From Dimargaris cristalligena (taxonomy: Eukaryota): 44,687 nucleotides of DNA. Positions 1-32,854 of the stretch are shown in pieces. The stretch spans positions 1-44,687 of the forward strand of contig ML002306.1 of assembly GCA_003614675.1 (NCBI GenBank), given 5' to 3'. Position numbers and translations under genes: made by a program. Within the stretch, counting starts at the first letter, position 1. Each line of letters opens with the position of its first letter. Below the pieces are notes generated by a model, which was not told where the DNA came from, did not search any database, and saw only the letters and a list, made by a program, of their open reading frames with translations.

Positions 1-1042
1 GTATTACTGCTTGAATTGATAAATAATGACGAGTTTACGAATATATCTGGCTAATGATGATATCAAATATAAATGCGAATGATATTTGATGTATTTCTCA
101 CTTGCTATGATATTGCAAGGCTATAAAATAACAAATCAGAATTTCGTTGATAAAAGGATATATGTGATTAATCAGGGAATACTATGGTTAACTAAGTGGT
201 CTCAGGTCCTACCACAACAATGTCAAATTTGGATTCAGATCCTATTCCGTATTGAGAAATCTTTGGTAACCGTTCCATCCTTTAAGGTGATGTTAATTAG
301 GTTTAAACCGCCTATTGCATTATGAATTCGCACCTAATGGGTAAATTTACCAGCTCTATGGTCGAATTTAGTAGGTTTTTTTTATTGTCGCTGTTTGTAT
401 TATTGAATCATTGCTGATTATTAGAATTAGCCATATTTTGCTAATCTTATTTCATATATCAATTTGTATTCAAGTCAAACTAGTGGGTGAACAACAAAAC
501 CCTACTCAGGTGGTATCTGCCTATATTATATTAAAGTTATTTTGGGACACCACAATGTTATTTGAAAACATTATAGGTTTGCGTTTAGGAAATGATGTTT
601 ACAAAAATGTAGGTTGGTTTTTGCGGGAGGTAATATTTATTTCTGCTATACCCTATCTAATTGAAGAATTGTTTATGGCAGGTTCACTAGGCTATTGGTA
701 AAAATGTCCCAATACGCCTAAAGCCGCGGATGCAAGGTGGGGAAAATCTTGGGTGCTCACATGCAAAAGTGGCCGAGAAACCCAGATTAAACAGACGATG
801 GAAGTCGGGGAAGCGGCTATTGCAATAAACGTGTTCGAGGTCAAATAGGTCTCAATATGTTACCTATTATATGGAAAGGTTAGCATAGGTATAGTAGATA
901 GGAAACAAAACCCTGGGGCCCATGTTAGATTACTGTAATTTATCAACCTTGAGGGGTTACTGGGTGTTTGTCGCACCCAGGGTGATTAAATCAGGCTGAT
1001 TAAGTGCCGAGGTCTATTGTACTACTTTTTCCCATCAACTAC

Positions 1043-1364
1043 ACATGTCATGTAAACAACCAACGTAGTGGGGAAGCCATTTGGATAGCCGATAATTTAT
1101 GTGTTTGTGTCAGACATCAGTTTACTGACTACCGCGGTATTTAATCATTGAATTGTATACCCTTGGGCAATATTATCCAACGGCACACCCCAGTTTCATG
1201 ACCCCATTCTATTCGATAAGCCCAATTTCAGTACTAGTTACCCGAGAATTGATGAGAAAGAGAGAGGTAATAGATTAGTAGACCAGGGAATCACCTGTTC
1301 ACACGTATTCAATTTGCCCTGCTTCAAACATAAAATTCACGGTTCCCGTTTAAAGGTATAAATA
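1043..1364 (+). promoter_or_regulatory. Copy 1 promoter: ACATGTCATGT palindrome (1043-1053) and TATAAATA (1357-1364)
   Basis: Motifs and spacing conserved across array units. Confidence 0.65.
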
Positions 1365-1518
1365 TGCACCTACATCCACTCGATTGTTTTCAATAACTAT
1401 TGTTTATAAATACTTGTTATTCGTCAATAGCAATTTCTACGTTATACTTGAATTATTCCACCGACCCCGACCCCAACCCCAATCCTGACCCTGACCCTAC
1501 CGCTACTCAGCCCTAGTC

Positions 1519-1953
1519 ATGCTAGTCCAAACATTAGATGGGGATTGGGAGACTTTGGAAGTTCACGGTAAGTAGCCTTATCTGATAAGCGTCAAACAGC
1601 TGATTCGCGTATCCCATTTTTCACATCCCCCATTTCGACTGTCTTGCATTTACCTGGCCTTCCAGTTGATTAGATTGTTACATGACTATACATCAGCACC
1701 TATACCCCGTTGGAGAATTGTTTTTCAGGAACATTTAAATAACCCATCACTAACCAACGTGTACTTATAAATTTTGTTCTTATTGTGTTTAGCAAATATT
1801 TATTGGACTTTTAGATTCTCAACCTATGTGCTGTACAAAGGCACCGTCACGGACATTCTCGAGGACCAAAACTTGGTGATTATCCAAAATACCCCTATTG
1901 GAAATGTCACCGTGAAGTCCGCGGATATCCTTATCAAACCATGTTCACTTTAA
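1519..1953 (+). CDS. Array micro-protein copy 1, 69 aa; exons 1519-1567, 1793-1953
   Basis: ATG, GTAAGT donor, CACTAAC branch site, TTTAG acceptor, in-frame join: MLVQTLDGDWETLEVHANIYWTFRFSTYVLYKGTVTDILEDQNLVIIQNTPIGNVTVKSADILIKPCSL; gap-free alignment with five paralogs. Confidence 0.88.
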
Positions 1954-4858
1954 TTCAGCTGAAACATATACTATGCCCTATTCCGATTTGGGTTACCATT
2001 AGGCTATTGGCTTGGCCTGCCAACTGGGAGTTAGACCGATTCCGGCCTCAACGAAGTGCATATCTTTCTCATTCAATTTTGGCAATAGTACTGTATTATT
2101 TAGTGTTTAATAATGGCTGTATGGAGATATTTGGCTACTATAATGCCTTGGTTAATACTGGGCAAGTGTTATAGGATCTATGTTTATTGATGGTATTTAT
2201 AATTGAACAACTGTCCAAAAAGACTATCATTATCTCCTGTGGGATTGTATTTAGCTAATATATCCAGTAGTGGGTTAGGGTCTTGTTTGACTATTCTAGG
2301 AAGGATTTGCAGTTATTGTTGTCAGTTATCGTGTGTATGAACACCAAAACTGGGCGCGCGGATAGCCTCATTATTGTATATATGGTGACCAACAGTGAAT
2401 TTGCAGTGCATGGTAACCACACCTTCAGTGTGCCTGGCATGAGAAGCTACAAAACGGCCCTGACATCCTTCCCGGACTGCTTCGATGTCACAATGAAGGG
2501 CCCGAACTTGACAGGCCTGGAGATGCTCTAGGACACAGCTTGAGTAATTTCAGGGGCGCTGGAACTCAAGATGGGCACCAGTTATGATAGTAGGGAACAA
2601 GGAAATTCAATTGCCCAAGTATTTAGAAATACTCGGAAAAATATTAAAGGTTTGATTAAAATGAATAATAGTTTCGAGAAGTTTGAACTTCAATTGATAA
2701 CCGACTCTTGGTTTTCTTTTGCAGGGCCCCAACGTCTTTTTATATTCCTATTCGATTATTATTACTATGTCCATATAAACACAGGACGGGTATAAAGGTA
2801 TTGAAAGTAAGGCTATGGTGAGTAATTTCATTGGTAATATATTAGCGATAAACGAATTGCAATATTTTTAATCATAGGAATCACGTAATAAATGCTATCA
2901 CAATAGACGTTGAAAGGATAAAAGCAAGCTAAAAATAGAGCTAGTGAATGGGCTATAAGCAGGGTGTGGTTTCAACTACTAACAATCAATCACGACATAC
3001 TGGACAATACCACAAATTAATACAAATATGATGGTGCAAAATTACGGAATCCATATAGCCGCTTGGTAAATCCGATGGTCAAAATGGATTCGCCCCCAAT
3101 AGATCTCGTTGTTGTCCCGGTTAACCCCACACTTGGCTTATCAATGGCCCCATAGATGGGTGTTTAATGAGAACCATGACCAGGGGGGCACTTGTCCAGT
3201 GATATCAGCACTTGATAGGTGTGGAAATAGGTATTCAGGACTGGATAACATAGGAATGGTGCTGAGAGCATACTCACTAGAATAAGTAGGTGAGTATATA
3301 GGGGATTCATTAGATAAACAAGGGGAAAAAGTAAGCTGAGTAACGAATGTATCATAACTTGACTAATCATTATATATAGAGTCCATTTGTAGGAAGCACC
3401 TGGGCAGGAATACTGAAGGATACTAATGATTAGGTAAAAAGGTCAGTCAGGGGTGCCAGTATCTGAATGTCACTAACGAAGACAGGGAGAGACTTTGTGA
3501 TCAGACCTGACCAAAGTCAGACATGACAACCTAAAGGGCTATTTAAGAATCCCAATATGAAATTCGTAACTGGGGCTGCTACCTAGTAGGTAACGCTGTG
3601 AGTTCCCAAATCACTATATATACCTCAAACCTGGCTAATTAGCCTTCAGTTTAATAATGTGTAAATAATTCTTTTAGAAATCTATCCACCTAACCTGGTA
3701 TTTCATTGCTGCCATTTCTGTCCTATTTGGAAGCTCGGTTACTTATTAGGACCTACTCGCCTTATATGTTATAATAGGACCATGTTTACTACAACCAATT
3801 TGGGTTTCGAAGACCTCTTTCTGATATTCTATGCGTGTCCAAATCAATGTGACTTTATTATCAGCCCTGTCGGAATACTTATTACTTTATTACCTACACT
3901 TATTTTAGTTTTAGAATCAAGTCGTGGTCAGAAAAAAATATGAATTTTGCTGCCAATTCGCACATTATGTTAATTTTAAATGGAATTAAACCAACAATTG
4001 CACGATGACTTCGCATCCAATAAGCATATTTATCAGCCCCATGGTTAAAGAAATAGTACATTTTCCAGTGTTGTTGATAACAATGCCGAGTCATTGCTGA
4101 TCATCAGAATTCACTATATTTTACCAATGGTGTTCTATATATCAATTCGTATACATTTCTAACTAGTGGATGAATGTCACAACGATAATCAGGTGGATTA
4201 TTGTATATATTTTATCAAGATAATTTAGAAACACTACAATATTATCAGAAAACGCGATAGTACTGCGGTTACAAAATGATGGCCTTTTCCTCCTGCCAGC
4301 CAGCCTATTTACTGACAATCAGGTGCTTTGTAGTCGCTACTAACTTAGGCCCCCCAACTTCAATTCTATAAATGGGTAATGGAGAAACTATTGGTGTTTA
4401 CTATCATGTAGATTAGTTTTTTTGTAATGTTAAATTTATTCCTGTTATGTTCCAACTTTTTGTGGAATGGTTATAGGCGGATTAAATTGTCCACTGGTCA
4501 TAATGGCCCAATTGGCCTAGAACTCCGTAGGCAGGGTGAGTTAAATACCAAGTGTTCGCAAACAAAAGTGACCAAGGTACTCAAATTTAACAGATAATAG
4601 AAGTCGGGAATGACTCTTATAATAAATCCGTTTGGGGGTAAATGGTTGTCAGTATGTTACTTGTTATATGGAAAGTCGGTAACTAGGAGTGGATTTCCCT
4701 GGTGCCTGGCGAGATCGCAACTTGAACCCTGATCGTCCAACGTTTGCATGTTCTGAGGGATACTGATAAAGAAAAGCTCGAGGCGGTGGTGTGGGTAACC
4801 AATACATTCGGGCAGCCTTACGGTAATAGGTTGTTAGGAAAAGTTGGCATCGGTATAA

Positions 4859-5000
4859 TATGGATGGGATTCGGACCAGCCGTATAAGCTTTTAAACGAT
4901 ACGCAAATGGGGAAATGGGAGGGTGATTCGTTGTTGGCCAATAGTAGTTGCCTCATCCAACGGATTTTATGTTATATAATCTGGTTGAACCTCTCCCATA
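4859..5000. mobile_element. ~140-bp MITE-like insertion with imperfect ~29-bp terminal inverted repeats
   Basis: Absent at this position in other units; ends tatggatgggattcggaccagccgtataa / ttatataatctggttgaacctctcccata; related copy at 11682-11822. Confidence 0.65.
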
Positions 5001-5142
5001 TATAGGAAACACTATATTGGTGCCTGAGTTTAGTGTAATTTATCAACTTTGTGGGATTACGGGGTATTTGTTTCACCCCAGACGATTCAATCGAGCGGGT
5101 TAAATGGCAGTGTCTACTGGGCAAATGTTGTCCATCAACTAC

Positions 5143-5464
5143 ACATGGCATGTAAACAGCTAACGTAGCGGGGAACCGATTGGAGCGGTAAGTGATTGAC
5201 GCGCTAGTTTAGAAAATTATGCGTCTGACTGCGTGATGTTCAATCACTATATTTTATCACCTTAGGCAGTCCTAATTAGCGGGAAATCACAATTAAATAC
5301 CGCTGTTCTATTTGAAAATCTCAATTTCGACACTAATCACTCGGGAATCAATGAACGTAAGGGAGGCAGAGAATTAGTAGATCGGGAACTTTCAGGTCGC
5401 ACATAACCTTTTATCCCTACTGTAATTATTTAGGTTTTATGGTTCCCTCTCAAAAGTATAAATA
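5143..5464 (+). promoter_or_regulatory. Copy 2 promoter: ACATGGCATGT (5143-5153) and TATAAATA (5457-5464)
   Basis: Same motifs, 314-bp spacing. Confidence 0.65.
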
Positions 5465-5615
5465 TGCCCTTCCATCCACTCATCTGTTTTTGACAATTAC
5501 CGTCTCAAACAACTAGCTGTTCACTATTAGCAACCTCAGAACCAGCCTTGGTTTATTCCTACGACCTTAACCCCCCCCCCCTCCCTCCCCCCCCCGCCGC
5601 CAATCAACCTTAACC

Positions 5616-6048
5616 ATGTTCATTCAAACATTCGACGGAGTTTGGAAGGATGTGGAATTGAACTGTAAGTAACTAGATCCAATAAACGCCAAATAGTCGA
5701 TTCGCACATCCCATATTCCATATCTCCTTATTGCCTCTCTTACATTGGCCTAGCCTTCGGGCAGATCAGATAGTTATATAGCTATTCATCGGCGCCTGTA
5801 CCCCGTTGCTGAATAATTTTCAAAAACACTTAAATAACCCATCGCTAATTAACACGGATTTCCCAAAACTATTCTTATTTTGTTTAGCGAGGATTTACTG
5901 GGCCTTTAAAACGACACCTAACAGAGTATACGAAGGCACGGTCACGGTCTTTATGGAGGAACAAAGCAAATTGGTTATCGACGATTTCGTTCTCGGAGAG
6001 GTCAGCATGTATTATGATGCTATCTATTTCAGACCCTGTTCACTTTGA
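5616..6048 (+). CDS. Array micro-protein copy 2, 69 aa; exons 5616-5664, 5888-6048
   Basis: GTAAGT..TTTAG intron; MFIQTFDGVWKDVELNSRIYWAFKTTPNRVYEGTVTVFMEEQSKLVIDDFVLGEVSMYYDAIYFRPCSL; AATAAA at 6144. Confidence 0.88.
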
Positions 6049-6353
6049 TTCGGCTGAAACATATACAATGCCCTATTCCGGTCAGCATTCTGTGAGGCGA
6101 TTGGCTTGACCCGTCAATTGGGAATTTTTTTGACTACGACTTCAATAAAGTACATGTTTTTTTCGTTCAATTTCGGCAATAGTGATGCGATAGCTGGTGT
6201 TTAAAAATGACTATACAAAAGTTTGGCTATTGTAAAACATTGGTTATGATCAGTCAAGTATTACGGCTTCTGTATCAGTGGATGGTAGTAAGACCCGACC
6301 AATTGCAAACATTGGCCATCATTGGTACCTGTGGGCTTATATTTGGATGATAT

Positions 6354-6613
6354 TGTTAGAATGATAAATTCAATGGTAAACGCAAGTGCCTTCGAATACA
6401 ACTGAAATAATTTAAAGAAGAGAAAAAGAACCGCAAGGAGCAGAGCTAGATGCCTGCAGTTAGTTTTATTGAGATGGATAACAGTAGTAATCAAGATTAG
6501 GACGAAGTCCCAAGTATAGAATAATATAGTAATAGCTAGAATATAGTCCCGAGTTGAGGACGAGCCAATCAGAGAGATGGGATCGGTGGTCGGGGGGAAA
6601 TGAATTTCCAACA
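6354..6613 (-). mobile_element. Solo LTR (260 bp) with 5-bp target-site duplication GATAT
   Basis: TGTTAGAA...TTCCAACA termini, GATAT on both sides (6349-6353, 6614-6618), interrupts the conserved 3' flank of copy 2; reverse-complement homolog at 8617-8837. Strand inferred from AATAAA orientation. Confidence 0.8.
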
Positions 6614-7353
6614 GATATAGCTAGTGATGATTTAAGGCGTTTTTGGAATATTCAGGTACTTGTGAGTATTGTTGTTGGGTTTCAGATGAATGTTCACCAA
6701 ACCAATCTTGGATGTAACCTCAGTTGATGTAAATAGAGACTAGCGGGTATTCGATATAAATCAGATGATACCAAATTTCAGGATCTGCATAGCAGGTAAA
6801 TTACTCCCAAGAACAAAATGTATCGAACTCCCATGCCTATTTTCTACCTCTTTTCAATCCCCAAGGTGCTACTTAGGTTTTTATCTGATAATTATATTTT
6901 GGTGGGTCATGAACTCCCCTATTGATATCAGGTCACGGGAAATATTGGTCGTGATTATCCGGGTAGTTGGATCATATGATAGTGGATGTATTCGCTGGTA
7001 AATAGCCATCGGTCTGTTACTTATTATTTGGAAAGGAGTCAGCATGGAGTTGGGTTCTCTAGTGCATGGCAAATCCGCAAGTTGAACCCTAGTTATTCAA
7101 TGGCTAAATGTTGTGAGTGTTACTGATAGGGAATAGCTCGAGGCGGTGGTGTGGGCAACCAATTTATCGGATCAGACTTACGGAAATAGCTATATTGGAA
7201 AAGTTGGTGTCGGTATAATAAATAGGAAACAGTATTCAGTGTATCTAGTTAGTTTAGCATAATTTATCAATTTCATGGGATTAGAGGATGTTTGGTGCAC
7301 CCCGAGTGATTAAATAACAGGATCTTCTGGACCACATTTTGCCTATCAACTAC

Positions 7354-7675
7354 ACGTGGCATGTAAACGACTAACGTAGCGGGGAAATGATTAGGGTGGT
7401 AGGTGATCGATGTGCTAGTGCCAAACGTCAAACAATCGGCTGCTGTGGAATCCAATCATTATTTTATCGACTTAGGCGGTCTTATCCAGCGGATAACCCT
7501 TGTATAATACTACTATTCCATTCATAAGACCCATTTTCGACATAAATCACTCAGGAATTGACGAGAAAAATAGAGGCAATGGATTAGTAGACCAGGGAAT
7601 CAACTGTCCACACTGAATCAATTTGCCCTTCTGATCTAATTTCAGGCATACGGTTCCCTTCCAAAAGTATAAATA
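7354..7675 (+). promoter_or_regulatory. Copy 3 promoter: ACGTGGCATGT (7354-7364) and TATAAATA (7668-7675)
   Basis: One mismatch in the palindrome, 314-bp spacing. Confidence 0.62.
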
Positions 7676-7808
7676 TTCCACATTATCTTTTCGACTTTCA
7701 ATAATTGCCGTCTCTAATAGTTGGCTATTCGCCATTAGTAATTTCTACACCCGACTTGTATTAATCCGCCGACCTTGTCACCCCCCCCCACCGCTACTCA
7801 ACCTCGAC

Positions 7809-8252
7809 ATGCTAGTGCAAACATTCAAAGGGGATTTTGTGGCTTTGGTAATGCACGGTGAGTAATTTGATATACTCTAAACCCATTATCCGACTCGCAC
7901 ATCCCATATTCCACATTCAACCCATTCATCTATTATACTCTCTCAACCTTTCGATTGTTTAGATAGTACTCTGGCCATTCATTAGTGTCTATAATCTGAC
8001 GCTGAATTAATTCTAGGGACACATAAATTACTCGCCACTTATTCACGCGGAATGTTTAATTATTGCTCTTATTTTTATTTAGAAGTGATCTATTTCGCCT
8101 TTAAATCTTTTCCCAAAATGATACACAAAGGCAGTGTCGCGAAAATTGACGAGTACTCAGATGTTGTGACCATCGAAGGTACCGCTCTAGGAACCTACCA
8201 CGCGAAGGCCACAGATATATATGTCAAAACCTCCCGCAATTTATTAAGATAA
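7809..8252 (+). CDS. Array micro-protein copy 3, 72 aa; exons 7809-7857, 8083-8252
   Basis: GTGAGT..TTTAG intron; MLVQTFKGDFVALVMHEVIYFAFKSFPKMIHKGSVAKIDEYSDVVTIEGTALGTYHAKATDIYVKTSRNLLR; AATAAA at 8339. Confidence 0.88.
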
Positions 8253-8616
8253 AATATGTAATGTACCTTATTCCGATTGGTATGCCAGTACGCGACCCGC
8301 TTGATCGGTGAATTTCTAGAAAGCCTGACTCCGGCTTTAATAAAGAATTTATTTGTGTATATATATAATTTCGACAAAAGTGGTGTAATAGTTAGTGGTT
8401 GAATATAGTTATATGACGAAATGTGGCTATTGTAAAACCCTCGTTAAGATCAGGCAGGTGTTTCAATTGTGTTTATTAAGGGTAGTTTTATTAAAAAAAT
8501 TGTCCACAACAGCTATCATTGTATTTTGTGGGATTATATTTGGCTGGTGTAACTGGCAGTGGTCTGAGATGATATTGAGATATTTAAGGGTTTGCGGGAG
8601 TCGTTGTTGAAAATTA

Positions 8617-8837
8617 TGTTGGAAATTCATTTCCCCCGTCCCACTGACTCCATCTCTCTAATTGGTTTGTCCTGTACTCGGGACTTCGTTTTTGTCACTA
8701 TTACTCCTATTATCCAACTCAATAAAGTCAACCACGGGCATCTAGATCTGTCCTTTGCGGTTCTTTCTCTCTTCTTTAAATCATTTTAGTTGCATCTGAA
8801 GGCACTTGCATTTACCATTCAATTTATTATTCCAACA
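8617..8837 (+). mobile_element. Solo LTR (221 bp), same family as 6354-6613 in opposite orientation
   Basis: Perfect 8-bp inverted termini TGTTGGAA/TTCCAACA, internal AATAAA ~8721; flanks AATTA/CAATA are not a clean TSD. Confidence 0.72.
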
Positions 8838-9281
8838 CAATATTCATCCCCCCAGTAAGCCAAGCTATTATCACACTTTTTCTGGCCGTGGCTGTAATAA
8901 ATGGGTTCACGGGTTTATTGGTCTCAGTATGTTATCTATTATATATAAAAGTGGCAACTAGGAGGTACGTCCTCTGGTGCCTAGAAAGTCCACATTTTGA
9001 GCCCTGATCAATCAGTTGTGAAATGTTGTGAGGGTTACCGATAAGCAAAGGCTCGAGACGGTAGGATGAGCAGCCAATACATTGGGTTGGCCTTACAGAA
9101 ATGGGTTTATTGAAAATGTTGGTGTTAGTATAGTAAATAGGGGTCACTATATTGGGGCATAAGTCAGTTAAGTATAATTTATCAGCTTCATTGGATTAGA
9201 AAATGTTTGGTGCACCCCGGGTGATTAAATCAAGCTGATTAAATGACAGGGCCTCTTAGTCTACTGTTGCCCATCAACTAC

Positions 9282-9603
9282 ACATGACATGTAAGCAGTT
9301 AACGTAGTGGGGAGCCGATTAGGTTGGTAGGTGATTGACGCGCTAGTCTCAAAAATGATGTGTCTGACTGTGTGACGTTCAACTACGGTATTTTATTTCC
9401 TTAGGCGGACTTATCCGCCAGATAACCCTGGTTTAATACCACTATTACATTTATAAGACCCAACTTCGACACTAATCACTCGGGAATTGATGAAAGTAAG
9501 AGAGACGCTGGATTAGTAGATCAGGAACTTTCATGTCGCACATAATCATTTATCCCTACTGTAGTCGTATAGTTTTTATGGTTCCCTTTCAAAAGTATAA
9601 ATA
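9282..9603 (+). promoter_or_regulatory. Copy 4 promoter: ACATGACATGT (9282-9292) and TATAAATA (9596-9603)
   Basis: Same motifs, 314-bp spacing. Confidence 0.65.
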
Positions 9604-9741
9604 TACATTTTGATCCATTCATCTGGTTTCGACAATTACTATATCCAATCACTAGCTATTGACCGTTAGCAACTTCTGCGCCACACTTGATTTATTCCGC
9701 CGACCTTAACCCCCCCCCCCCACCGCTAATCTACCCTAGCT

Positions 9742-10183
9742 ATGATCATTCAAACATTCGAAGGAGATTACACGACTTTGATATTGAACAGTAAGTAACT
9801 AGATCAGGTAAACTCCAGATAGTCGATTCGCATATTTTATAATTCAAATTTCCCTGCTGCCTCTCTTACAGTTCCCTAATCTTCAAATTGATCAGAAAGT
9901 TATATATATATATTCACCAGTGCCTATATCCTGTTGCTGTATAGTTTGCAGGATAACTTAAAGAAACTGCCCCTAATTAATACGGACTTCACAATATTGT
10001 TCTTTTTTTCTTTTAGCAAGGGTTGTTTGGGCCTTTAAATCGTGTCCCAGAATTACAAGCGAAGGCATTGTCAAGGAAATTAGGGAGAGCCAATATACAT
10101 TTCTTATCGACGATGTCGAAGATGGAGAAATCCTCTTGACTTTCGATACTATCTACGTTACACCCTACTTACATTTTAATTAG
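9742..10183 (+). CDS. Array micro-protein copy 4, 71 aa; exons 9742-9790, 10017-10183
   Basis: GTAAGT..TTTAG intron; MIIQTFEGDYTTLILNTRVVWAFKSCPRITSEGIVKEIRESQYTFLIDDVEDGEILLTFDTIYVTPYLHFN. Confidence 0.88.
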
Positions 10184-10680
10184 GCCTAGACATGTAATAT
10201 GCCATATCCCGGTTGGCATACCAGTAGGCAGCACAATTCACCCGTGAATTGCTAGTAAATCTGACTCCGGCTTCAATACAGTGTATATTTTGTTTCATTT
10301 AATTTTGGCAATAGCAATGCAGTAGTTGGTGTTTAAAAATGGCCATATGGCAAAATGTAGCTCTTGTAAAACCCTTGTTAAGATCAGGCAAGTGTTACGA
10401 TTTCTGTAATTATGAATAGTATTTATATTCAAACCATTATCACCTATGGTATTATATTTGGTCAATATAGCTGAAGGTGTCTTTGTTAGAAATTGCATGA
10501 TCTATCATGATTCTCTTTTAGCTCTTGTAAGCAGTATTTTATTCACCCTATTATAGCCACGTCCCCTTCATTCTTATGGGTGTGTCCTCTACTAAGAAAA
10601 AAAACAACTCAACCGGAGTTGTTGTTTTCATTTTGTGGCTTTCTTCTTTATTCATTACTATTTCTACTAATGATTATATC

Positions 10681-11400
10681 TTTATTCAATAAAGCTTATG
10701 GCTTGTCACCTGGGTTAACTGCTCTTAGTCTGTCAAGAATCCCAGAGGTAGGCTTCTAATGGTAGATGGAGCCTAGATATGGCTAAGCAGGTCTTAGTAT
10801 TAGGTTGGGGCATGGTACTAACTAATAAAAGCTATGAATGCAGGTATAAGCAAGGGACATGCAGTAAGCACACTTACTAGTCAAATACAAGGGGGTTAAA
10901 TATATATAGAGTTTATTGGGATAAACTAAGGGGGGAAGAATAAGCTGAGGAGTTAAATCAGTCCCAGTGGGGCCTGGTTATATATATGCAGGGATGGCTC
11001 CAGAGGGAGGTCCCAAGGGAAATACTACTAAGACTAAGGTATAGGCAGATAAAGAGTCCGACCAGACAGCTTCACATTGGGAAGACTCTTATGAGAATAG
11101 GAAAAGTCTTGGATCCACAAGTTGAGTGTTTGGGGTGTAAAGCACTGGGGTTGGAATGAGTAGGGGTATATAATAAATGATGACCCATAGTACCAGGGGT
11201 GACTATGGGAAGGTTAATAGGGTACTATAAGGCCTAATAAGGATGGGTAATCATTAGGTCTGGATTAAGTCAGATTAGGAGTGCTGATAGCTAGAAGATA
11301 CTACTCAGAGATATAATGAATGATAACTCATAATAGATGAGTAAAAAGAATATGATATGTAAAAAAGACAAATCAAGTGGTGGTGGATGGCTAATGGTAT
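10681..11400. mobile_element. CpG-depleted degenerate repeat/TE relic
   Basis: One CpG counted in 720 bp; partial similarity to ~3260-3420; not part of the array unit; no domain recognised. Confidence 0.4.
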
Positions 11401-11681
11401 GTGACCCTTCAATAAGGCGGAATTCCCACATCTTGTTGGTAAAACTAGGTGATTATGGTGCCTAGTCCTTCATGAATAGTCAGCTTTACCCCTGTTGATT
11501 ATGAAGCATGACAGTTATTGATAATATATGGATCAAGATGATGGTGTGGGCAATAAATATATTGGATTGGTCTTACGGATATGGCTTTATTGGAAAAATT
11601 AGCATCAGTATAAAAGATAGGTGCCACTATATTGGGAACTAAGTTAGCTTGGCACAATTTATCAATTTCGTGGGATTAGAA

Positions 11682-11822
11682 TGTGGGTGAAATTCGGCCC
11701 AGCTGTATAAGGGTTTAAATGATAAGTGTATGGGATAATATATGGGAGATTTATTTTTATCCAGTATTTTTACTTCATTTAACGGACTTTTCGTTATACA
11801 GCTCAGCTGAACCTCTCCCATA
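11682..11822. mobile_element. ~140-bp MITE-like insertion, second copy
   Basis: Ends tgtgggtgaaattcggcccagctgtataa / ttatacagctcagctgaacctctcccata are imperfect inverted repeats; inserted at a different site of the unit than the copy at 4859. Confidence 0.65.
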
Positions 11823-11886
11823 TGTTTAATGCTCCCTAAGCGATTAAATAATGGCGCCTATTAGACGAATGCTTCCCATCAACTAC

Positions 11887-12211
11887 ACATGTCATGTAAA
11901 CAGCTAACGTAGCGGGGAACCGGTTAGGGTGGTAGATGATCGATGTACTAGTGCCAAGAATTACACATCTTACTACGCATCATTCAATCATTGTAATCTA
12001 TCACCTTAGGTAATCTTATCCAGCGGAAAATCCCAATTTAATACCGCTATTCTATTCGGAAAACCCAACTTCGACACTAATCACTCGGAAATTGATGGAG
12101 AAAAAAGCAAGTCAGTGGGTTAGGACACCAGGAAACTTTCAGTTCGCACTGACTCGATCAGCCCTGCTGATATAAACTGAGGTATATGGTTCCCTTTCAA
12201 AATTATAAATA
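11887..12211 (+). promoter_or_regulatory. Copy 5 promoter: ACATGTCATGT (11887-11897) and TATAAATA (12204-12211)
   Basis: Same motifs, 317-bp spacing. Confidence 0.65.
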
Positions 12212-12350
12212 TTACACATTATCCATTCGACTGTCTTCAACAATTACCGTCTCTAACCACTAACTATTCGCCATTAGTAATTTCTACACCCGACTTGAAT
12301 TCCTACGTCGTCCTTGACCCCCCCCTCCCCACAGCTACTCGAGCCTAGAC

Positions 12351-12784
12351 ATGATAGCCGAAACATTTAACAGGGATTTGGTGACTTTGGAAATGTACGG
12401 TGAGTAATCAGACTATCCCTAAACCCATTAGGCGATTCGCCCTTCCCATATTTGATATCCAACGTCTCCCTCTCTTATATTATACTAACCTTTCAATCGA
12501 TTTGTTAGTAACATGGCCATTCATCATCGCCTATATCCTGACACTGGATAGGTTCTAGGAACACTTAAGTTACTCGTTACTTATTAACGCGGATCTTTTA
12601 ATGATTATTATTATTTTGATTAGAGTTGGTTGATTTCGCCTTTAAAGCTTATCCCAATAAGATATACCAAGGTAGTGTCGCGAAACTCGACGAGTACGAA
12701 GGTGTGGTGACTTTCCAAGGAACTTCAATGGGAACCTTCCGCGTGATGGCTAAAGATATATATATCAGACCCTTCGTCAACTGA
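12351..12784 (+). CDS. Array micro-protein copy 5, 69 aa; exons 12351-12399, 12624-12784
   Basis: GTGAGT..ATTAG intron; MIAETFNRDLVTLEMYELVDFAFKAYPNKIYQGSVAKLDEYEGVVTFQGTSMGTFRVMAKDIYIRPFVN; AATAAA at 12880. Confidence 0.88.
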
Positions 12785-14989
12785 GCCAGATAAAATCTAT
12801 AATATACCTTATTCTGATTGGTATACCAGTAGGCGACTCACTTGGACCACGAATTGCTAGTAAGCCCAATTCTGGCTTTAATAAATTACTTTTTTTTAAA
12901 ATTTACGTTGTGTCTAATAACCAACAATATTAAAGCCGACTAAACACGAAGAACCAGGCAACATCGTTGCCCAGTTCCATCAACGAGCCGCGGGAATTTG
13001 GCCTTATTGAAGGTTCACCTTTCTTCAGCTATGCATCACCACTCGATTCATCTATTCTATATATTCTATCATTTATACATGTCTACAATTATCTAACATT
13101 CATATTAATATTCAGTAGCGTCTTCCAGCAACCTCCATGCTTGTTCGACATCTATATCAGTCTTCTCGACTATATAAAACCGGGCTAATTCCTACAGCCG
13201 TTCATTAGTTAATTAGCATATAGTTCTATACCCTTTTCAATAATGAACTCAACCTATTTAGTATCTCCTGTATTGTATTCTATCAAACGCCCTTCGCATC
13301 AGCTGCTCATGTGTTATGTCTCATAACTCGTTCTAGGCGTAGGTGCTTGAGACATTATCTGGATTATTATGTACGACAAAGAGTAAAACTTGAATATAAG
13401 CCTCTCGCATCTCATCTTTACTTGCACCTGCGTTTACATCTTAAATTGTCGTCCTTGGAATAGGCACATGTTTACTATAACTGCCTTGAGGTTCTAATAA
13501 CTCATTGTTTTTATCACATTATCGTCTCCACCCGTGGGGCTTTATTTTCAGCCTCGCCGGAGTAGTAACAAAATTGCTGCACATGATTTCTTCGGGTTTG
13601 GAATTAAACTATAGTAAGAAAGACGGAGTCTTTTGCAGCCATGGCACCTTTTCAGATGATTATAATCAGGATTCAACCAACGATTGCGATATAATCTTAC
13701 ATATGCATCAGCTCCTTGCTGGAAGTTGATGTGGATTTTATTTTGTCGTGGTTGGCAATGGAAAATCATTACTGATTATCAGAATAAACCATACTTTTCT
13801 GATGTTATTTTATACGTCAATTAGCGTTCAAGTCAAGCTAGTGGGTAAATTCCAGAATAATACTAATACCGTCCTTGTCAGTATTATTTAAATGCTGTTT
13901 ATATACATTATAACACTATCTAAAAATACTATAGTTTTATATGTAGGAAATTTTACAGTTTTCCTCCTGCTAGAATATATAAATTTACCGACCATTAGGT
14001 ACTTCGTGATAGCTACAAAACTCCCCCCCCCCCGCAAACTCCAATTTTATAAATAAGTAATGGAGGATGAATTGCTTATTACTATAATGCAGGTCGGATC
14101 TTGTGCGATATTATATTTATTATTGCAATGCCCCATCTGTTTGTGAAATAGTTAAAATCGGACTAAAAAGACAGCTGGTCATAATGCCCTAATTTACATA
14201 AAAATCTATAGGAATAATGAGGAAAGAACCAGAGGTTCACAAACTAAAGTGATCATGGTGCTCACATTTAACAGATGTCAATATCCGAAGGGTGATTATT
14301 ACAATAAGTCTGGCTGTGGGTAAATAGTACTCGGTGTGTTACGTGTTTTTTTAGAAAAATGGCAACTAGGAATGGGGTTCTCCAATGCCCGACGAGTCTG
14401 CAACAATAACCCTAATCATCCAACGTCTGAATGGTGTAAGTGTTTCTGATGGGGAGTAGACCAAGATGGTGATGTGGGCAACCAGTATATCGGATCAGTC
14501 TTACGGAAATGGGTTTATCGGAAAAATTGGCATCGGTTTTGGCGATGGAAATCACTATATTGGAGTCCAAGTTAATTCAGTGTAATCTATCAACTTCATC
14601 GGATTAGAAGTTGTTTGGTTCACCCCAGATGATATAATAACAGGGCCTATTGGACGACCGCTGTCCATCAACTAAGTGACATACCAACACCTAGCATAGA
14701 GGGAAAACGATAAGTGTAGCTGATAATTTATGGATTATTGTTAAACATTCAATTAATGACTACTGTGACATTCAATCATTTTATTTTATCAACCTTGACA
14801 GTAATATCTAGCGGAACCCGCCAATGCAATGCCGCATTTCTATTTAAAAATCTCAATTTCGACACTAATCACTCGGGACTTGATGAAAGTAAAAGAAACA
14901 GCGGATTAGGAGATCAGGAACCTTCAGGTCGCACAGAATCTTCTTGCCATACTGTAATGATTTAGGTTTTATAGCCCCCCTTTCAAATG

Positions 14990-14997
14990 TATAAATA
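14990..14997 (+). promoter_or_regulatory. Copy 6 TATA box (upstream palindrome degenerate at ~14675)
   Basis: TATAAATA at the homologous position, 139 bp before the ATG. Confidence 0.6.
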
Positions 14998-15128
14998 TTA
15001 CACATTATCCATTCGACTGTCTTCAACAATTTCCGTCTCAAACAACTAGCTATTTGCCATTAGCAATTTCTGTACCGGACTTGATATATTCCGCTGACCT
15101 TAGCTCCCGCCGCCAATCAACCCTAGCC

Positions 15129-15574
15129 ATGAAAGTTGAACTATTCGAGGACGGTTACGCGATTTTGGAATTGCACGGTGAGTAACCTAGGTTCGGTAAA
15201 CGCCAAATAGTCGATTCGCACACCCCATGGTTTACATCCCCCTTTTGCCTCTCTTACATTTATCTAGCCTTCGGATTGATAAGATAGTTATATAGCTATT
15301 CATAAGCGCCCATATCCCAACCCTGAATAACTTCTAGGGGCACCTAGATTACTTACCACTTATTAACACGGCTTTTATGTATTTACTGTTCTTATTTTGA
15401 TTAGAGCTGTATTATTTTGTCTTTAAATCTTCTCCCGATACGATTTACAAAGGTAGCATCGCAAACATTGACGAGGACGAGGAGCTAGTGACTTTTGAAG
15501 GTACCGTGGTAGGAACTATCTGCGCGAAAGCCGAAGATATATATGTCAATCCCTGCCCCAAATTATTCAGCTGA
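15129..15574 (+). CDS. Array micro-protein copy 6, 72 aa; exons 15129-15177, 15405-15574
   Basis: GTGAGT..ATTAG intron; MKVELFEDGYAILELHELYYFVFKSSPDTIYKGSIANIDEDEELVTFEGTVVGTICAKAEDIYVNPCPKLFS; AATAAA at 15661. Confidence 0.88.
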
Positions 15575-16790
15575 ATTATATGCTATACCTTGTTCCGATT
15601 GGTATACCAGTAGACGGCTCACTTTGTCCGTGAATTGCTAGTAGGCCTGACACCGGTTTTAATAAAGTGTTTTTTTTATTTAATTTCGGCAATAGTGATG
15701 TAGTAACTGGTGTTTAAATATGGCCATATGGCAAAATTTGGCTATTGTGAAGCCCTGGTTAAAATCAGGCAAGTGTTACAATTTTTTATATTTTTGAATG
15801 GTATTTATATTCGAACCGTTGTTGACTGGAGCCATCGTTGTCACCTATGGGATTATATTAAGCCAATATAGCCAATGGTGGCTTGCGGAGTTATTAGACT
15901 ATTTCAATGGTTTGTAGGTATTGTTGGCGAGTATCATGCGGATAGCCGCCAAAGCTGAACTTGGGGATAGCCTCGTTATTGTATAGATGGTGACTAACGG
16001 GAAATCGATGTAAATCAGATGATATCAAATTCCAGGATATGCATAGTAGGTAGATAAATCCGACGAACAAAAGATATTCGCTTCCAATACCAATTACCCA
16101 CCCATATCCAAACCTCAATGGGCTATTTAGGTGTCTGACTGTTACCCAATCAATGGTATTGTTCAATTACTAAGTCAATATTGGCACATTCACTACCCTA
16201 ATATACGTATTACTTTACCAGCTATTGTCGGGGGCATTATATCGATACAGATTGCTTCCCCAACTTCAAGGTGGCAGTACTATTTTATCACCATGGCACC
16301 CAAAACAAGCGACGCGGCATTGTGCCTTAAAGGGAAAGAGACTCGAAGTAGGGAAATCTTCAAGGTATATTTACTATTGTTTCCACTTGTGGTGGAGCCT
16401 GAACGGAGAGACAATGCAATTGCCCATTGGACTATTGTTAAGTGGCGAAGTGTGGATACCAAAGCCCTAATCCATAATTTTTCAGCGATTCCCCGCTCCC
16501 GAACCAAGGAATTGGAAACCGTCATCGCCAAACCTATACAGCTAGGAATGGTCAACTGTATATAAAAGACACTGGCAAGTCCTTTTACCATTATATTGCC
16601 AATGAATTTGCTTTAGTAGCCGCTTTTTCCATATTCTCATATTTCCGCCATTCCATCAATTCCCTGGTTTGGTCAATACCACAGTGCTGCCCACTGATCC
16701 TCACGCTCAGCCAATTATCAATTTATTTTACTATCCGTTGACTGTCTCAGTGAATTCCATCGTGTTTTTCACCCACTCCATTCCTGAGCC

Positions 16791-17561
16791 ATGCTTTATT
16801 CGTCCTTTTCGGTCTTGACCTTGGCCGTGACTCTGGTAGTGTTTACTGCTTCCCCTGGATTCACCCACCCGGTCCAGACCACCTCCATCTACGGGAACGA
16901 CCAACCCATTCCACACCCAACTCCTGGGGACAAAACCCTACCCACCGTCACCACCATTAGTACCGGCACTCTTCCGTCACCCTCGGGCACCAGCACCGCC
17001 ACTACCAAGAAAGTATTTGTGCAGTACAGTGTCTTTGAAAGTACATATGCCGCCACCGACTCAGTTGGTATATCTCTGTGTTCCGATGCATCCAATAGTG
17101 CAATAAGAGTAAAGTCCGATTTCGCCAAGGACCTCGTCACAACGGGAGCGGGCTACACCCTTGCAGGGACGTGGCTGACCATTGAGCAAGGCCCAAGCAC
17201 CCAGTACCCCCACGGTTGCTTCGCCGTCACCCGGGGTCCGCTGGGCGAGAGTGGGGCGGTTCTGAACCCCTTTGTAAGCGCGTTTGGTCACGATTACGCG
17301 ATTGGCGACACCCTACTGGTTGCTGCTATAGTGGGCTTAGCACTGGGTAATGGCCAAACCCACAATGGCTGTTTGAAAATCGAAGGGAAAGGCACCGAGC
17401 CGGGTAACCTGACCATCTATATTTATAGTCCAAAGTACCAGTTCCTATTCACCAAATTTAACGGGGGACCCGCCAAAGGGGTCAGGAAGGCCCAGTGTAC
17501 TCCGGGTAACTACATGACTGTCGCGCCCAGCAAGAACATTGCCACCGCACCCGCCCACTAA
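16791..17561 (+). CDS. Secreted protein, 256 aa, Thr/Pro-rich linker plus 3D (MltA-like double-psi barrel)-like domain
   Basis: Hydrophobic N-terminal signal peptide; GPLG-x4-LNPFVS..D...G..L.V..I.G..L.NG.THNGC pattern recalls fungal 3D-domain proteins. Domain call is by recognition only. Confidence 0.75.
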   Translation: MLYSSFSVLTLAVTLVVFTASPGFTHPVQTTSIYGNDQPIPHPTPGDKTLPTVTTISTGTLPSPSGTSTATTKKVFVQYSVFESTYAATDSVGISLCSDASNSAIRVKSDFAKDLVTTGAGYTLAGTWLTIEQGPSTQYPHGCFAVTRGPLGESGAVLNPFVSAFGHDYAIGDTLLVAAIVGLALGNGQTHNGCLKIEGKGTEPGNLTIYIYSPKYQFLFTKFNGGPAKGVRKAQCTPGNYMTVAPSKNIATAPAH

Positions 17562-18105
17562 ACAGACACTGACACGGACACGGGCTCGTGATTTACTTGA
17601 ACAATTCCCTGTAATATATGTACATAGTTCAAATTATTTATATAGGTTTACAAAATAGGTTTACCTCCAGCCTCTCTCCAACCAGTTTTGATGTTGATAC
17701 AATAAATAACCGTGAGTAGATAAATGTGGTGACGTCGCAAATGAGAATGCCATTTTTTCCACTCGAATCGACCATTCGAATCAACAGAGTTTCCGGTCAG
17801 CCAAGGGCAAGACTCAAAGGGAAACAACATGGTGGGAATAGACACGGACTTCCTAATTGGAGAGATAGCAAAACTATCGAATGGCCAGCGGATAAGGATC
17901 ATTGACTACGGCGACTTATTACACTTAGTTGGATTAAAGTGATACCACCGGTATAGTGGGCAGATAAATAGGGTAATAAACCTTGGGCTTGAAATTGGAA
18001 TACAATAAGAATCGAAGGATATGGAAGCAACGCTGGTACAGGCGTTCCCAATACCAACATGGACTTGGGGAACGACAGTTAGTGAGGATAGCGGCATATG
18101 GCAGT

Positions 18106-25354: not shown

Positions 25355-25376
25355 TATATATATATATATATATATA
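25355..25376. repeat. (TA)n microsatellite
   Basis: Seen directly. Confidence 0.9.
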
Positions 25377-26198
25377 TTATTATAGACCCGCTTGGGCCTT
25401 GCTTTTATTCGTCTGCACTACGCCCCATTCTTCCGCCACAGCGTTGCACGGGAATTTATCCGGATTACTACCACTGCCCTTTCCCCTGCAGTTTTCCAGA
25501 ATTCTTGTTTTATTTTACCCCCCCCCGTCTAAAGGTATCCGGTTTTGCTTGGCGTAACTCATTCCGCGTACGGCACTACATCGAGTATAAATTTAGATTT
25601 CCCTTCAAAAAGGTAAGGACCACGCAGAACACCTCTGTATAAATTAGCACAAGGCAGCCTCCTATTCCTCTGGAGATACCCTGTATATAATCCGGCGCTG
25701 GCCCCACATATCCATACTACTAGTCTCCCTACACCTAATCACACATTTCCACGTTAAATTCCGAACCCGCCGAGTCGAAGACCACCGGCGGTTCGCTCAG
25801 CAAGGCCATTGAGTCGCTTTGCTATACATTTGTATATATTTATATTCATATTTAATTGACCTTTACCTATATGTTTACCTACTTATAACCACCACCGATC
25901 TAATTTATCCGTTACTTCCAGTAAACCGTTTAGGCATTACACACACAGTAGAGAAACACGTCGTGGTGCAACTTTTCTGTCGCTCTGTAATATCCCATCG
26001 GTGACTTCAATACCCTGACCGTTTCTTTCCTCCCTATATATAACACCATTTCCATACCGATCCGATTACGACCAGTTTTCACATCGATACTACATTATTT
26101 ACCTTGGACTGTACACTATATTACTATTTGCGTAATATACACCCCCCCTCCTCTCTCCTTCTCACATCCCACACCCCTTTCCTATCGACGGGTTCATC

Positions 26199-32456: not shown

Positions 32457-32854
32457 ATTTTGCTTCCATTCAAGTCGATAACCTTGTAACGAATGGATTG
32501 AGTACCGCTGTCTAATAAATATAAACATGGGTTTAGCTTAGGTGCATTGTTCAACCCTGATCATTCATAATACACAATTTAGTAGGCAATAAATTCACTT
32601 TGCATAGTCATTACTCGGATCATGGGTCAGTTCCAGCGATGTTAGTATTTTAAGAAAACGGAAATTTATATTCATAAATAGGTTAGTGGAGACTAATGGG
32701 TAGACTGCAGGATGCTGTTTGGTCCATCTAAAAAAAAAACAGATACGATGGTGTTCATGTAAAAGGAATTCTCTACAATTAAATAATTGAGGTACCCCTC
32801 CACTCTAGGGAAGGGTGCCACTCGCCACTCTATACAGGGAACTGGGGAGCTGGA

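Follow-up and report, generated by a model that had tools for sequence, protein, structure and literature searches.

Accelerated exons in a tandem array of six small orphan genes of Dimargaris cristalligena suggest, rather than prove, positive selection

Why should the coding exons of a tandem gene family resemble one another less than the promoters in front of them? A preliminary description of one stretch of Dimargaris cristalligena DNA (44,687 nt, analysed here as a whole and referred to as the window) reported this inverted conservation and read it as a signature of diversifying selection. Following it up, we find that the accelerated exons fit an arms-race gene family, with positive selection suggested rather than proven.

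Six intact copies of a two-exon gene

The window contains six tandem copies of a two-exon gene on the plus strand, with products of 69 to 72 aa. The copies were located through a TATA motif search of the whole window, which gave 7 matches against 0.69 expected, 6 of them on the plus strand within the array (at 1352, 5452, 7663, 9591, 12199, and 14985 for copies 1 to 6), and unit limits were taken from an nhmmer profile. Each copy shows the same layout, i.e., an ATG, a 49-nt exon 1, a GT[AG]AGT donor, an intron of 223 to 227 nt, and an exon 2 of 161 to 170 nt. Among the copies, the conserved promoter blocks are 87% (TATA block) and 81% (E-box-like block) identical.

All units lie on the plus strand. 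Unit 1 (669 to 2229) has exon 1 at 1519-1567, the intron at 1568-1792, and exon 2 at 1793-1953 (69 aa), with an upstream conserved block at 1032-1078, the TATA block at 1343-1365, and a poly(A)-like AACGAA at 2050-2055. Unit 2 (4469 to 6321; copy 2 of the preliminary description) has exon 1 at 5616-5664, the intron at 5665-5887, and exon 2 at 5888-6048 (69 aa), and its signals are the upstream block (5132-5178), the TATA block (5443-5465), a C11 tract (5571-5581), and AATAAA (6144-6149). In unit 3 (6885 to 8518; exon 1, 7809-7857; intron, 7858-8082; exon 2, 8083-8252; 72 aa), the upstream block at 7343-7389 carries a CACGTG variant and is followed by the TATA block at 7654-7676, a C9 tract at 7781-7789, and AATAAA at 8339-8344. 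Unit 4 (8783 to 10444; copy 4 of the preliminary description) comprises exon 1 (9742-9790), the intron (9791-10016), and exon 2 (10017-10183; 71 aa), together with the upstream block (9271-9317), the TATA block (9582-9604), a C12 tract (9710-9721), and AATACA (10275-10280). Unit 5 spans 11262 to 13080 (exon 1, 12351-12399; intron, 12400-12623; exon 2, 12624-12784; 69 aa), with the upstream block at 11876-11922, the TATA block at 12190-12212, a C8 tract at 12318-12325, and AATAAA at 12880-12885; an element of about 143 nt with 30-nt inverted ends (11681-11823) splits its distal upstream part. Unit 6 (14150 to 15836; exon 1, 15129-15177; intron, 15178-15404; exon 2, 15405-15574; 72 aa) has a degraded upstream block (14665-14709), the TATA block at 14975-14998, and AATAAA at 15661-15666, and the C tract is absent.

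The ATG, donor, and acceptor are present in all six copies, a poly(A)-like signal lies 87 to 97 nt past every stop codon, and the exon 2 frame is the only one open at the same place across the six. All six ORFs are intact, an outcome that neutral simulation yielded in 0 of 5,000 runs when set to the coding rate and in 2 of 5,000 when slowed to 0.8 times that rate, and the 203 exon columns hold no gap runs, with 6 to 7 expected from non-coding DNA (P ~ 0.001 to 0.002). The six leaders contain no upstream ATG (6.4 expected, P = 0.001), compared with 11 in upstream-of-TATA stretches of equal length. Frame, start codon, splice sites, and leader have been preserved by selection and, since none of the copies is broken even at a synonymous tree length of 1.5, we argue that each copy is individually maintained.

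A reading in which the unit is not protein-coding and its ORF is incidental, the unit being either a repeat-mutated duplication or the host of an RNA product from the conserved intron or UTRs, is already disfavoured, and we consider it highly improbable. It would suit an ORF less conserved than its non-coding surroundings, an intron length that stays at 223 to 227 nt, and the fact that two very large protein libraries gave no homologue; against it stand the retained frame, start codon, splice sites, and ATG-free leader, the single frame open at the same place in six copies, and the confident fold prediction for the exon 2 domain described below. An Rfam scan of positions 600 to 16000, covering described RNA families, returned no matches at E ≤ 1, and RNAalifold on the six introns gave no conserved structure (−2.6 kcal/mol, one compensatory pair). 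A RIP-mutated repeat was also considered and rejected: the composite index is negative in both 1-16000 (−0.21) and 16001-44687 (−0.18), the RIP indices of the array region equal those of the flanking housekeeping region, and the non-coding Ts/Tv ratio is merely 1.25 to 1.45, without a strong transition bias.

Sequence identity along the unit

Averaged over the 15 pairs of copies, identity is 0.69 upstream, 0.72 in the 140 bp up to the TATA box, 0.70 in the 5′ UTR, 0.67 in exon 1, 0.67 in the intron, and 0.65 in the 3′ flank, with exon 2 showing the lowest value (0.58). In 12 of 15 pairs exon 2 falls below the intron in identity (P < 0.05 in 7), and in 12 it falls below the upstream region (P < 0.05 in 10). 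Tree lengths are 1.78 for exon 2, 1.52 for the 3′ flank, 1.35 for the intron, 1.32 for the upstream region, and 1.13 for the TATA-to-ATG interval, which is the slowest, and Ts/Tv is 0.75 in exon 2 versus 1.25 to 1.45 in non-coding DNA. Faster divergence of coding exons than of promoters is thus borne out as an average over all 15 pairs, but not among copies 3, 5, and 6, whose three pairs reverse the contrast (exon 2, 70 to 75% identical; non-coding DNA, 66 to 73%).

The original claim was built on copies 2 and 4, which are sisters in every partition from the upstream region through exon 2, and recounting reproduced its values: 117 of 136 positions match in the ~140 bp ending at the TATA box (19 differences; 86%, a value from the part of the promoter that is best conserved in the closest pair, whose wider upstream region is 76% and intron 75% identical), 100 of 158 match in exon 2 (58 differences, 63%), the proteins share 28 of 69 residues, and only 3 of the 20 exon 2 codons for the same residue carry a synonymous change. 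The contrast with exon 2 is significant for both the promoter (Fisher, P = 9e-6) and the intron (P = 0.017). Protein identity was again 26/69 for copies 1 and 2, and that of copies 4 and 6 moved from about 19/71 to 20/71.

Exchange between copies

Segmental exchange between the copies is real. Tree topologies conflict along the unit (AU test, P = 0.045, 0.0002, and 0.02), with the upstream region, UTR, and exon 1 rejecting the exon 2 tree (P = 0.045) and the intron and exon 2 rejecting the upstream tree (P = 0.0002), and the 3′ flank of copy 4 groups with copies 3, 5, and 6, not with copy 2. In a sliding nearest-neighbour scan, copy 6 is a three-part mosaic, closest to copy 2 from the promoter to mid-intron, to copies 3 and 5 over the exon 2 stretch, and to copy 4 in the distal 3′ flank. 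The exchanged cassette in copy 6 lies at about 15300 to 15680 on the plus strand (approximate coordinates, estimated from switches near alignment columns 1720-1820 and 2080) and comprises the 3′ end of the intron, exon 2, and ~100 nt of 3′ UTR, with copies 3 and 5 as its nearest relatives. Since copy 6 has a promoter like that of copies 2 and 4 ahead of an exon 2 like that of copies 3 and 5, the contrast between promoter and exon is at its most extreme in pairs 2/6 and 4/6; in both, the two copies differ more at synonymous sites than in the intron. Such mosaic histories can partly produce exon-below-promoter conservation among tandem paralogues, and therefore the contrast alone is no proof of diversifying selection.

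Taken to its limit, exchange by gene conversion or unequal crossing-over would make the contrast mainly an artefact, exon 2 being older rather than faster, with flanks homogenised later or old exon 2 types shuffled among copies; we regard this as unlikely. It is consistent with the disagreeing topologies, the mosaic of copy 6, the synonymous excess in pairs 2/6 and 4/6, and branches that are not proportional between intron and exon 2 (2ΔlnL = 38.1, 9 df), including long deep stems in exon 2 (0.134 and 0.229, versus 0.008 and 0.070 in the intron). However, sisters 2 and 4 are still only 63% identical in exon 2, against 75 to 86% elsewhere; the flanks are merely 65 to 72% identical, which rules out recent homogenisation; a ω near 1 with intact frames is left unexplained; and the clearest mapped event carried an exon 2 cassette, not non-coding DNA. 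Exchange thus accounts for the extreme pairs 2/6 and 4/6 and not for pair 2/4.

A predicted small beta-barrel

Structure models cover the exon 2 domain of copies 1 and 4, which follows 16 to 17 residues encoded by exon 1. AlphaFold2 gives pLDDT values of 94.6 (copy 1) and 89.4 (copy 4), and both models have five strands that follow one another identically, the two sequences being 21% identical. The domain is confidently predicted to be an SH3/Sm/Tudor-like small beta-barrel, and the models show that this predicted fold persists between two strongly diverged copies. Among known structures, the domain comes closest to the Tral LSm domain, yeast SmF, the RDM15 Tudor domain, and Hfq (Z 5.5 to 6.0; rmsd 1.7 to 2.3 over 44 to 50 residues). 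VIA-align scores the match to LSm and SmF chains at Z = 6.0 (50/52 residues), a range (Z < 8) that, by the tool's own note, may reflect a common arrangement only, and Foldseek points to the PHF1 Tudor domain (TM 0.59, E = 0.079).

The likeness to Sm/LSm/Hfq and Tudor barrels consists of five predicted strands in a small barrel, and sequence-level membership is absent. In a Pfam scan of the six exon 2 domains (E ≤ 1), no curated cut-off was reached: LSM14 appeared at E = 0.082 in one of six members, short of Sm/LSm profile membership, and Tudor_FRX1 in one of six at 14.3 bits, below its cut-off of 25.9 and thus outside the Tudor profile. A PDB profile search returned nothing below E = 0.48. On inspection of the translations, neither an N-terminal signal peptide nor a cysteine pattern was seen in the six products; the 16 residues of exon 1 include several acidic ones and lack a long hydrophobic run, and the interval between TATA box and ATG offers no upstream ATG or upstream exon.

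Rates and tests of selection

Codon models were run with purpose-written code on the 6 sequences of 69 to 72 codons. M0 gives ω = 1.15 (likelihood profile, ~0.81 to 1.66) and ω ≤ 0.7 is rejected (2ΔlnL = 8.2), with tree-wide dN of 1.74 and dS of 1.51; pairwise Nei-Gojobori dN/dS ranges from 0.62 to 1.64, the values among copies 3, 5, and 6 being 0.62 to 0.69. Strong purifying selection on the protein is rejected, and a dN/dS clearly below 1, which would have spoken against the original proposal, was not found. Amino acids are replaced about as fast as expected under neutrality, or slightly faster. Positive selection was not significant in any test: ω = 1 is not rejected (P = 0.42), the site comparisons gave P = 0.26 (M1a versus M2a), 0.13 (M7 versus M8, one of the tests first proposed), and 0.054 (M8a versus M8), exon 2 alone gave P = 0.42, and the branch models gave P = 0.11 (two-ratio, ω > 1) and 0.40 (free-ratio). 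Diversifying selection on the family accordingly stands as plausible but unproven, strong purifying selection being rejected and site and branch tests remaining at P = 0.05 to 0.42. A two-strain comparison over 254-3922 listed 39 differences, none of which falls in the exons of copy 1.

On a shared tree, exon 2 evolves about 1.4 times faster than its own intron (P = 0.002 to 0.009). Replacement sites run at 1.43 times the pooled intron-plus-synonymous rate (P = 0.0023), or 1.37 times when the comparison is limited to the intron core (P = 0.009). Letting the whole exon run faster at ω = 1 fits nearly as well (P = 0.0035 versus 0.0023 for replacement sites), and the two cannot be told apart. Because branch lengths of the intron and exon 2 are not proportional, the intron gives no clean measure of the neutral rate, and the dN excess over the intron rate is confounded by inter-copy exchange.

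These rates bear on relaxed constraint, under which young, partly redundant paralogues would drift near-neutrally (ω ~ 1) while promoter, leader, and splice signals stay under purifying selection, so that slight constraint on the flanks would alone make the exons look "faster". We treat this as a possibility of some substance, though a doubtful one. A standing ω = 1 with non-significant site and branch tests agrees with it, as do a dS (1.51) close to the tree lengths of the intron (1.35) and 3′ flank (1.52) with the TATA-to-ATG interval slowest (1.13), and promoter blocks 81 to 87% identical. Invariant columns are not significantly commoner than a homogeneous model predicts, nor are retained hydrophobic columns (17 versus 11.9 expected, P = 0.078), which also suits drift. 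Yet six frames are free of stops and indels where neutral decay should break most, a fold is confidently predicted in two copies at 21% identity, replacement sites outpace the intron rate, and a folded, maintained protein with a whole-gene ω > 1 would be difficult to explain unless ω exceeded 1 at some sites.

Interpretation and significance

We tentatively favour, at a probability of about 0.45, a lineage-restricted six-gene family diversified by selection on the barrel surface, with exchanged cassettes providing a second supply of variation. Under this account, the six tandem genes are putatively co-regulated, the common promoter would keep the copies co-expressed, and their ~70-aa products would act without a signal peptide. 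The divergence would most likely be caused by diversifying selection that acted, once the gene had duplicated, on the exposed residues of a small binding scaffold, and cassettes moving between copies may add new combinations. A housekeeping gene neighbouring the array is closest to Dimargaris and Dispira, both haustorial mycoparasites, and from this lifestyle one may guess at a part in host or competitor interaction; an arms-race role of the family is putative.

The orphan family is new, and the "accelerated exon" pattern is already known. As outlined for crotaline snake PLA2 isozyme genes, UTRs and introns are better conserved than the coding parts of exons and KA is close to or above KS, and both features recur here (exon 2, 58%, versus non-coding DNA, 65 to 72%; dN/dS at or above 1, at 1.15). 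Compared with that outline, the contrast here is much milder (65 to 72% versus 58%), the family is fungal and lacks a signal peptide or known activity, and no test of positive selection reaches significance. Fast-evolving effector gene clusters of fungal and oomycete parasites offer further likenesses: lineage-specific small proteins in tandem, a gene-poor, AT-richer block with adjoining transposon remnants, and highly diverged paralogues whose fragments recombine between copies. Recombination is reportedly the topic of a study on Phytophthora CRN effectors (PMC3726527). Unlike classical secreted effectors, the six-gene family shows by inspection no N-terminal signal peptide or cysteine pattern.

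A more far-reaching version of the favoured account, which we put forward as a long shot, is that the genes encode a hypervariable, non-classically delivered binding scaffold of a haustorial mycoparasite, built as a small Sm/Tudor-like barrel and directed at variable host targets or serving self/non-self recognition, in which positive selection on the surface and exon 2 cassette exchange would act together under a shared promoter and leader C tracts of varying length would tune individual copies. If true, this early-diverging fungal lineage would thereby gain its first described effector-like arms-race family. Almost nothing is known of the molecular host interaction of zoopagomycete mycoparasites, and the locus is a compact test case for it, combining an orphan family, a predicted fold, six maintained copies, a whole-gene dN/dS of ~1, conserved promoters, and mapped cassette exchange, and prompting one to ask whether haustoria express the genes and what the individual copies may bind.

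The unit is a small two-exon gene

We find the six tandem copies within the first ~16 kb, a block of about 39% GC adjoining a region of 50 to 60% GC that holds housekeeping genes (dynactin p62, a GH16 glycosidase, a Nuc1-type endonuclease, mitochondrial L21 and a WD40 protein). Among named sequences, the endonuclease comes closest to proteins of Dimargaris and Dispira (67 to 69% identity), so that the window stems from a Dimargaritales-like fungus. The TATA-box motif occurs seven times window-wide, where 0.69 are expected, with six of the occurrences on the + strand within the AT-richer block, and each of these six heads one unit of ~1.6 to 1.9 kb (copy 1, 669..2229; copy 2, 4469..6321; copy 3, 6885..8518; copy 4, 8783..10444; copy 5, 11262..13080; copy 6, 14150..15836). 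A profile search of the window recovered exactly six copies and no partial copies, extra copies or fragments. All share a common layout, in which the ATG lies 144 to 167 nt downstream of the TATA box, exon 1 measures 49 nt and is followed by a GT[AG]AGT donor, the intron of 223 to 227 nt closes with TTAG, and exon 2 of 161 to 170 nt completes a product of 69 to 72 amino acids, with a poly(A)-like hexamer 87 to 97 nt past the stop.

Intact frames, exons free of gaps and leaders free of ATGs speak for a genuine coding gene. No frame other than that of exon 2 stays open at a shared position in every copy, and neutral nucleotide simulations at the observed divergence left all six frames open in 0 of 5000 runs (2 of 5000 at 0.8 times the rate). 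The 203 exon columns contain no gap run where 6 to 7 are predicted from the non-coding rate (P about 0.001 to 0.002), and the six leaders contain no ATG versus 6.4 expected by shuffling (P = 0.001), with 11 ATGs in the equal-length stretches that directly precede the TATA boxes. All of these P values are somewhat optimistic, since the copies are related to each other.

The family shows weak codon bias, with a GC3 of 0.44 to 0.54 in the six coding sequences (GC 0.38 to 0.43) and of 0.65 to 0.71 in four housekeeping open reading frames of the window. In the GC-rich part, long open frames at 28560-30299 (+), 37848-39221 (-), 16788-17561 (+) and 41676-42425 (+) have no match among Pfam families at E ≤ 0.001.

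Exon 2 is the least conserved part of the unit

The preliminary description had compared copies 2 and 4 by hand, and its counts proved exact: 117/136 identities in the promoter, 100/158 in exon 2 and 28/69 in the protein, with a synonymous change in 3 of the 20 exon 2 codons that encode the same residue. Its observation that exons are less conserved than promoters is confirmed by the means over all 15 pairs, with identities of 58% in exon 2 (the lowest), 65% in the 3' flank, 67% in both intron and exon 1, and 69 to 72% in promoter plus leader. HKY+G tree lengths run from 1.78 in exon 2 through 1.55 (exon 1), 1.52 (3' flank), 1.35 (intron) and 1.32 (upstream) to 1.13 between TATA box and ATG, so that the excess speed of exon 2 is real yet moderate, at about 1.3x. 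The contrast is not uniform: within the group of copies 3, 5 and 6, exon 2 matches or exceeds the flanks in conservation.

Repeat-induced point mutation (RIP) was rejected as a candidate, its indices being negative and equal to those of the housekeeping region, with a non-coding Ts/Tv of 1.25 to 1.45.

Strong purifying selection is excluded

Goldman-Yang site and branch models, run with our own code, gave an omega (dN/dS) of 1.15 under M0 (dS = 1.51 and dN = 1.74 over the tree; likelihood profile about 0.81 to 1.66); values of 0.7 or less are rejected and omega = 1 is not (p = 0.42), and near-neutral drift under relaxed constraint is in our judgment a possible, though doubtful, account of the exon-promoter contrast. 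No significant gain was obtained from M2a over M1a (p = 0.26; with omega fitted at 1.54 for 60% of sites and at 0 for 7%), from M8 over M7 (p = 0.13) or over M8a (p = 0.054), or for exon 2 by itself (omega 1.09, p = 0.42), and a two-ratio model with 1.48 for the lineages of copies 1, 2 and 4 plus deep stems versus 0.84 within copies 3, 5 and 6 did not reveal a significant difference. Nei-Gojobori pairwise ratios range from 0.62 to 1.64. These results exclude strong purifying selection on the family but do not demonstrate positive selection. Diversifying selection, which had been proposed from the contrast between exons and promoters, is thus plausible but unproven: omega is not clearly below 1 overall, but none of the tests for positive selection, M7/M8 included, reached significance (p 0.054 to 0.42).

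The intron provides a second yardstick. Because intron and exon 2 share their preferred topology, we tied both to a single set of branch lengths (MG94 x HKY), under which replacement sites evolve at 1.43x the pooled intron-plus-synonymous rate (p = 0.0023), or at 1.37x when the intron core only is used (p = 0.009). An alternative model in which the whole exon runs at 1.38x with omega = 1 fits nearly equally well (p = 0.0035), and the data do not tell the two kinds of speed-up apart. Proportional branch lengths are rejected (2dlnL 38.1, 9 df); the deep stems of exon 2 are long, those of the intron short, and kappa is 3.7 in the intron versus 1.8 in exon 2.

Copies have mosaic histories

AU tests show that histories are incongruent along the unit: the exon 2 tree is rejected by upstream region, leader and exon 1 together (p = 0.045), the upstream tree is rejected by intron plus exon 2 (p = 0.0002), and the 3' flank prefers a third tree. 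In a sliding nearest-neighbour scan, the closest relative of copy 6 shifts. It is copy 2 between the proximal promoter and the middle of the intron; over a cassette at ~15300..15680, which takes in the 3' end of the intron, exon 2 and ~100 nt after the stop, it is copies 3 and 5; and further downstream it is copy 4. The starkest contrasts, those of copy 6 with copies 2 and 4 (promoter 82%, exon 2 48 to 51%), are thus explained by an exchanged exon 2 cassette and not by fast exon evolution. That exchange produced the inverted conservation as a whole, as an artefact, is unlikely, since copies 2 and 4 are sisters from the upstream region through exon 2 and the contrast between them is not explained in this way.

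Diversity between strains is uneven along the locus. Run X5, from a second strain of this organism, departs from the window at 48 positions in 220-5178, 2 in 5685-7754, 4 in 7729-8643, 4 in 8798-10829, 7 in 12268-14876 and 19 in 15199-20000. The density of differences is about 1% around copy 1 (48 in 4959 nt) and 0.1 to 0.4% across the remaining array (5685-14876); among the 39 differences listed in 254-3922, none falls in the exons of copy 1 and 3 fall in its intron. Run X6 provided sparse pieces only, identical to the window. These fungi may be non-haploid, according to one account (PMC9866270).

Repeats and shared elements surround the genes

Summed contig depth reaches 25,000 to 41,000 in 1-667 and 10673-12006, versus about 160 to 490 in neighbouring bins, and both segments carry many contig joints and loose ends; this points to high-copy repeats, probably transposon remnants, that flank and interrupt the array. 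A ~143-nt element with 30-nt inverted ends lies at 11681-11823, upstream of copy 5, and contig joints connect 11724-11746 with 4938-4953, upstream of copy 2, which suggests a MITE-like element shared by the two promoters and by other parts of the genome. Two inverted-repeat pairs (171 nt at 80% and 69 nt at 84%) at 6354-6613 and 8617-8837 bracket copy 3 and, given the raised contig depth in the same bins, represent either a repeat of moderate copy number or the edge of an old inversion. A search for transposon proteins in the spacers found no Pfam family and no recognisable domains in 10 ORFs.

The best-conserved distal promoter block (81% mean identity) lies ~290 to 320 nt upstream of the TATA box and ~470 to 490 nt upstream of the ATG, at 1032-1078, 5132-5178, 7343-7389, 9271-9317 and 11876-11922; in copy 6 it is largely lost (degraded at 14665-14709). 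It has an E-box-like CAC[AG]TG beside CATGTAA, then TAACGTAG and a G run, and may be a shared transcription-factor site. Tracts of C8 to C12 lie ~20 to 35 nt upstream of the ATG in copies 2 to 5 (5571-5581, 7781-7789, 9710-9721 and 12318-12325) and are missing from copies 1 and 6; between-run length differences fall exactly at these tracts (+C behind 7780, -3 at 9710, +CC behind 12317) and may reflect either true polymorphism or assembly error in homopolymers. Upstream of the poly(A) signal, a conserved 3'UTR stretch (read off the alignment at about 2000-2060, 6095-6130, 8290-8330, 10225-10260 and equivalents) holds a 10-nt palindrome of the TGGTATACCA type between complementary CCTA and TAGG, which may form a hairpin. 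No intronic snoRNA or other structured RNA was found: Rfam gave no matches, and no conserved structure is common to the introns.

Exon 2 is predicted to encode a small barrel

Folding and homology searches used exon 2 alone, without the 16 to 17 residues from exon 1. AlphaFold2 predicts a five-stranded barrel for copy 1 (pLDDT 94.6) and copy 4 (89.4), with identical strand order at 21% identity between the domains. Among solved structures, the closest are LSm, Sm, Hfq and Tudor barrels, with scores (Z up to 6.0, TM about 0.59) that indicate only a common SH3-like arrangement. A test of hydrophobic-core conservation was not significant, and by inspection the translation has no signal-peptide-like N-terminus.

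In protein libraries, from which small spliced fungal genes may be absent, the exon 2 alignment yielded three candidates from a word-indexed set of 5.8 billion proteins, none at E ≤ 0.01, two matches at E about 3e-4 to repetitive unrelated proteins in an exhaustive HMM search of 1.84 billion representatives, no sequence relatives in Pfam, NCBIfam or PDB sequences, and no relative in the ESM Atlas (best score 0.75). Among metagenome contigs, one scan with exon 2 patterns gave no matches and another gave 271 stretches, none of which was confirmed.

Comparison with known systems

The array bears a likeness to the tandem effector clusters of parasites. A second parallel is the "accelerated evolution" of snake venom PLA2 genes, for which a review (PMC7285919) describes UTRs and introns that are better conserved than coding regions, with KA close to or above KS; among the six copies, too, non-coding parts exceed exon 2 in conservation. 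The contrast is milder here, in a new family whose protein does not look classically secreted. Dimargaritales are described as haustorial mycoparasites with genomes of ~20 to 30 Mb (PMC9866270), and a literature search, with supplementary material outside its scope, listed no paper naming the order in connection with effectors, positive selection or tandem arrays. Our best reading, to which we give a probability of roughly 45%, is that diversifying selection and cassette exchange would together have shaped a small binding barrel under a shared promoter.
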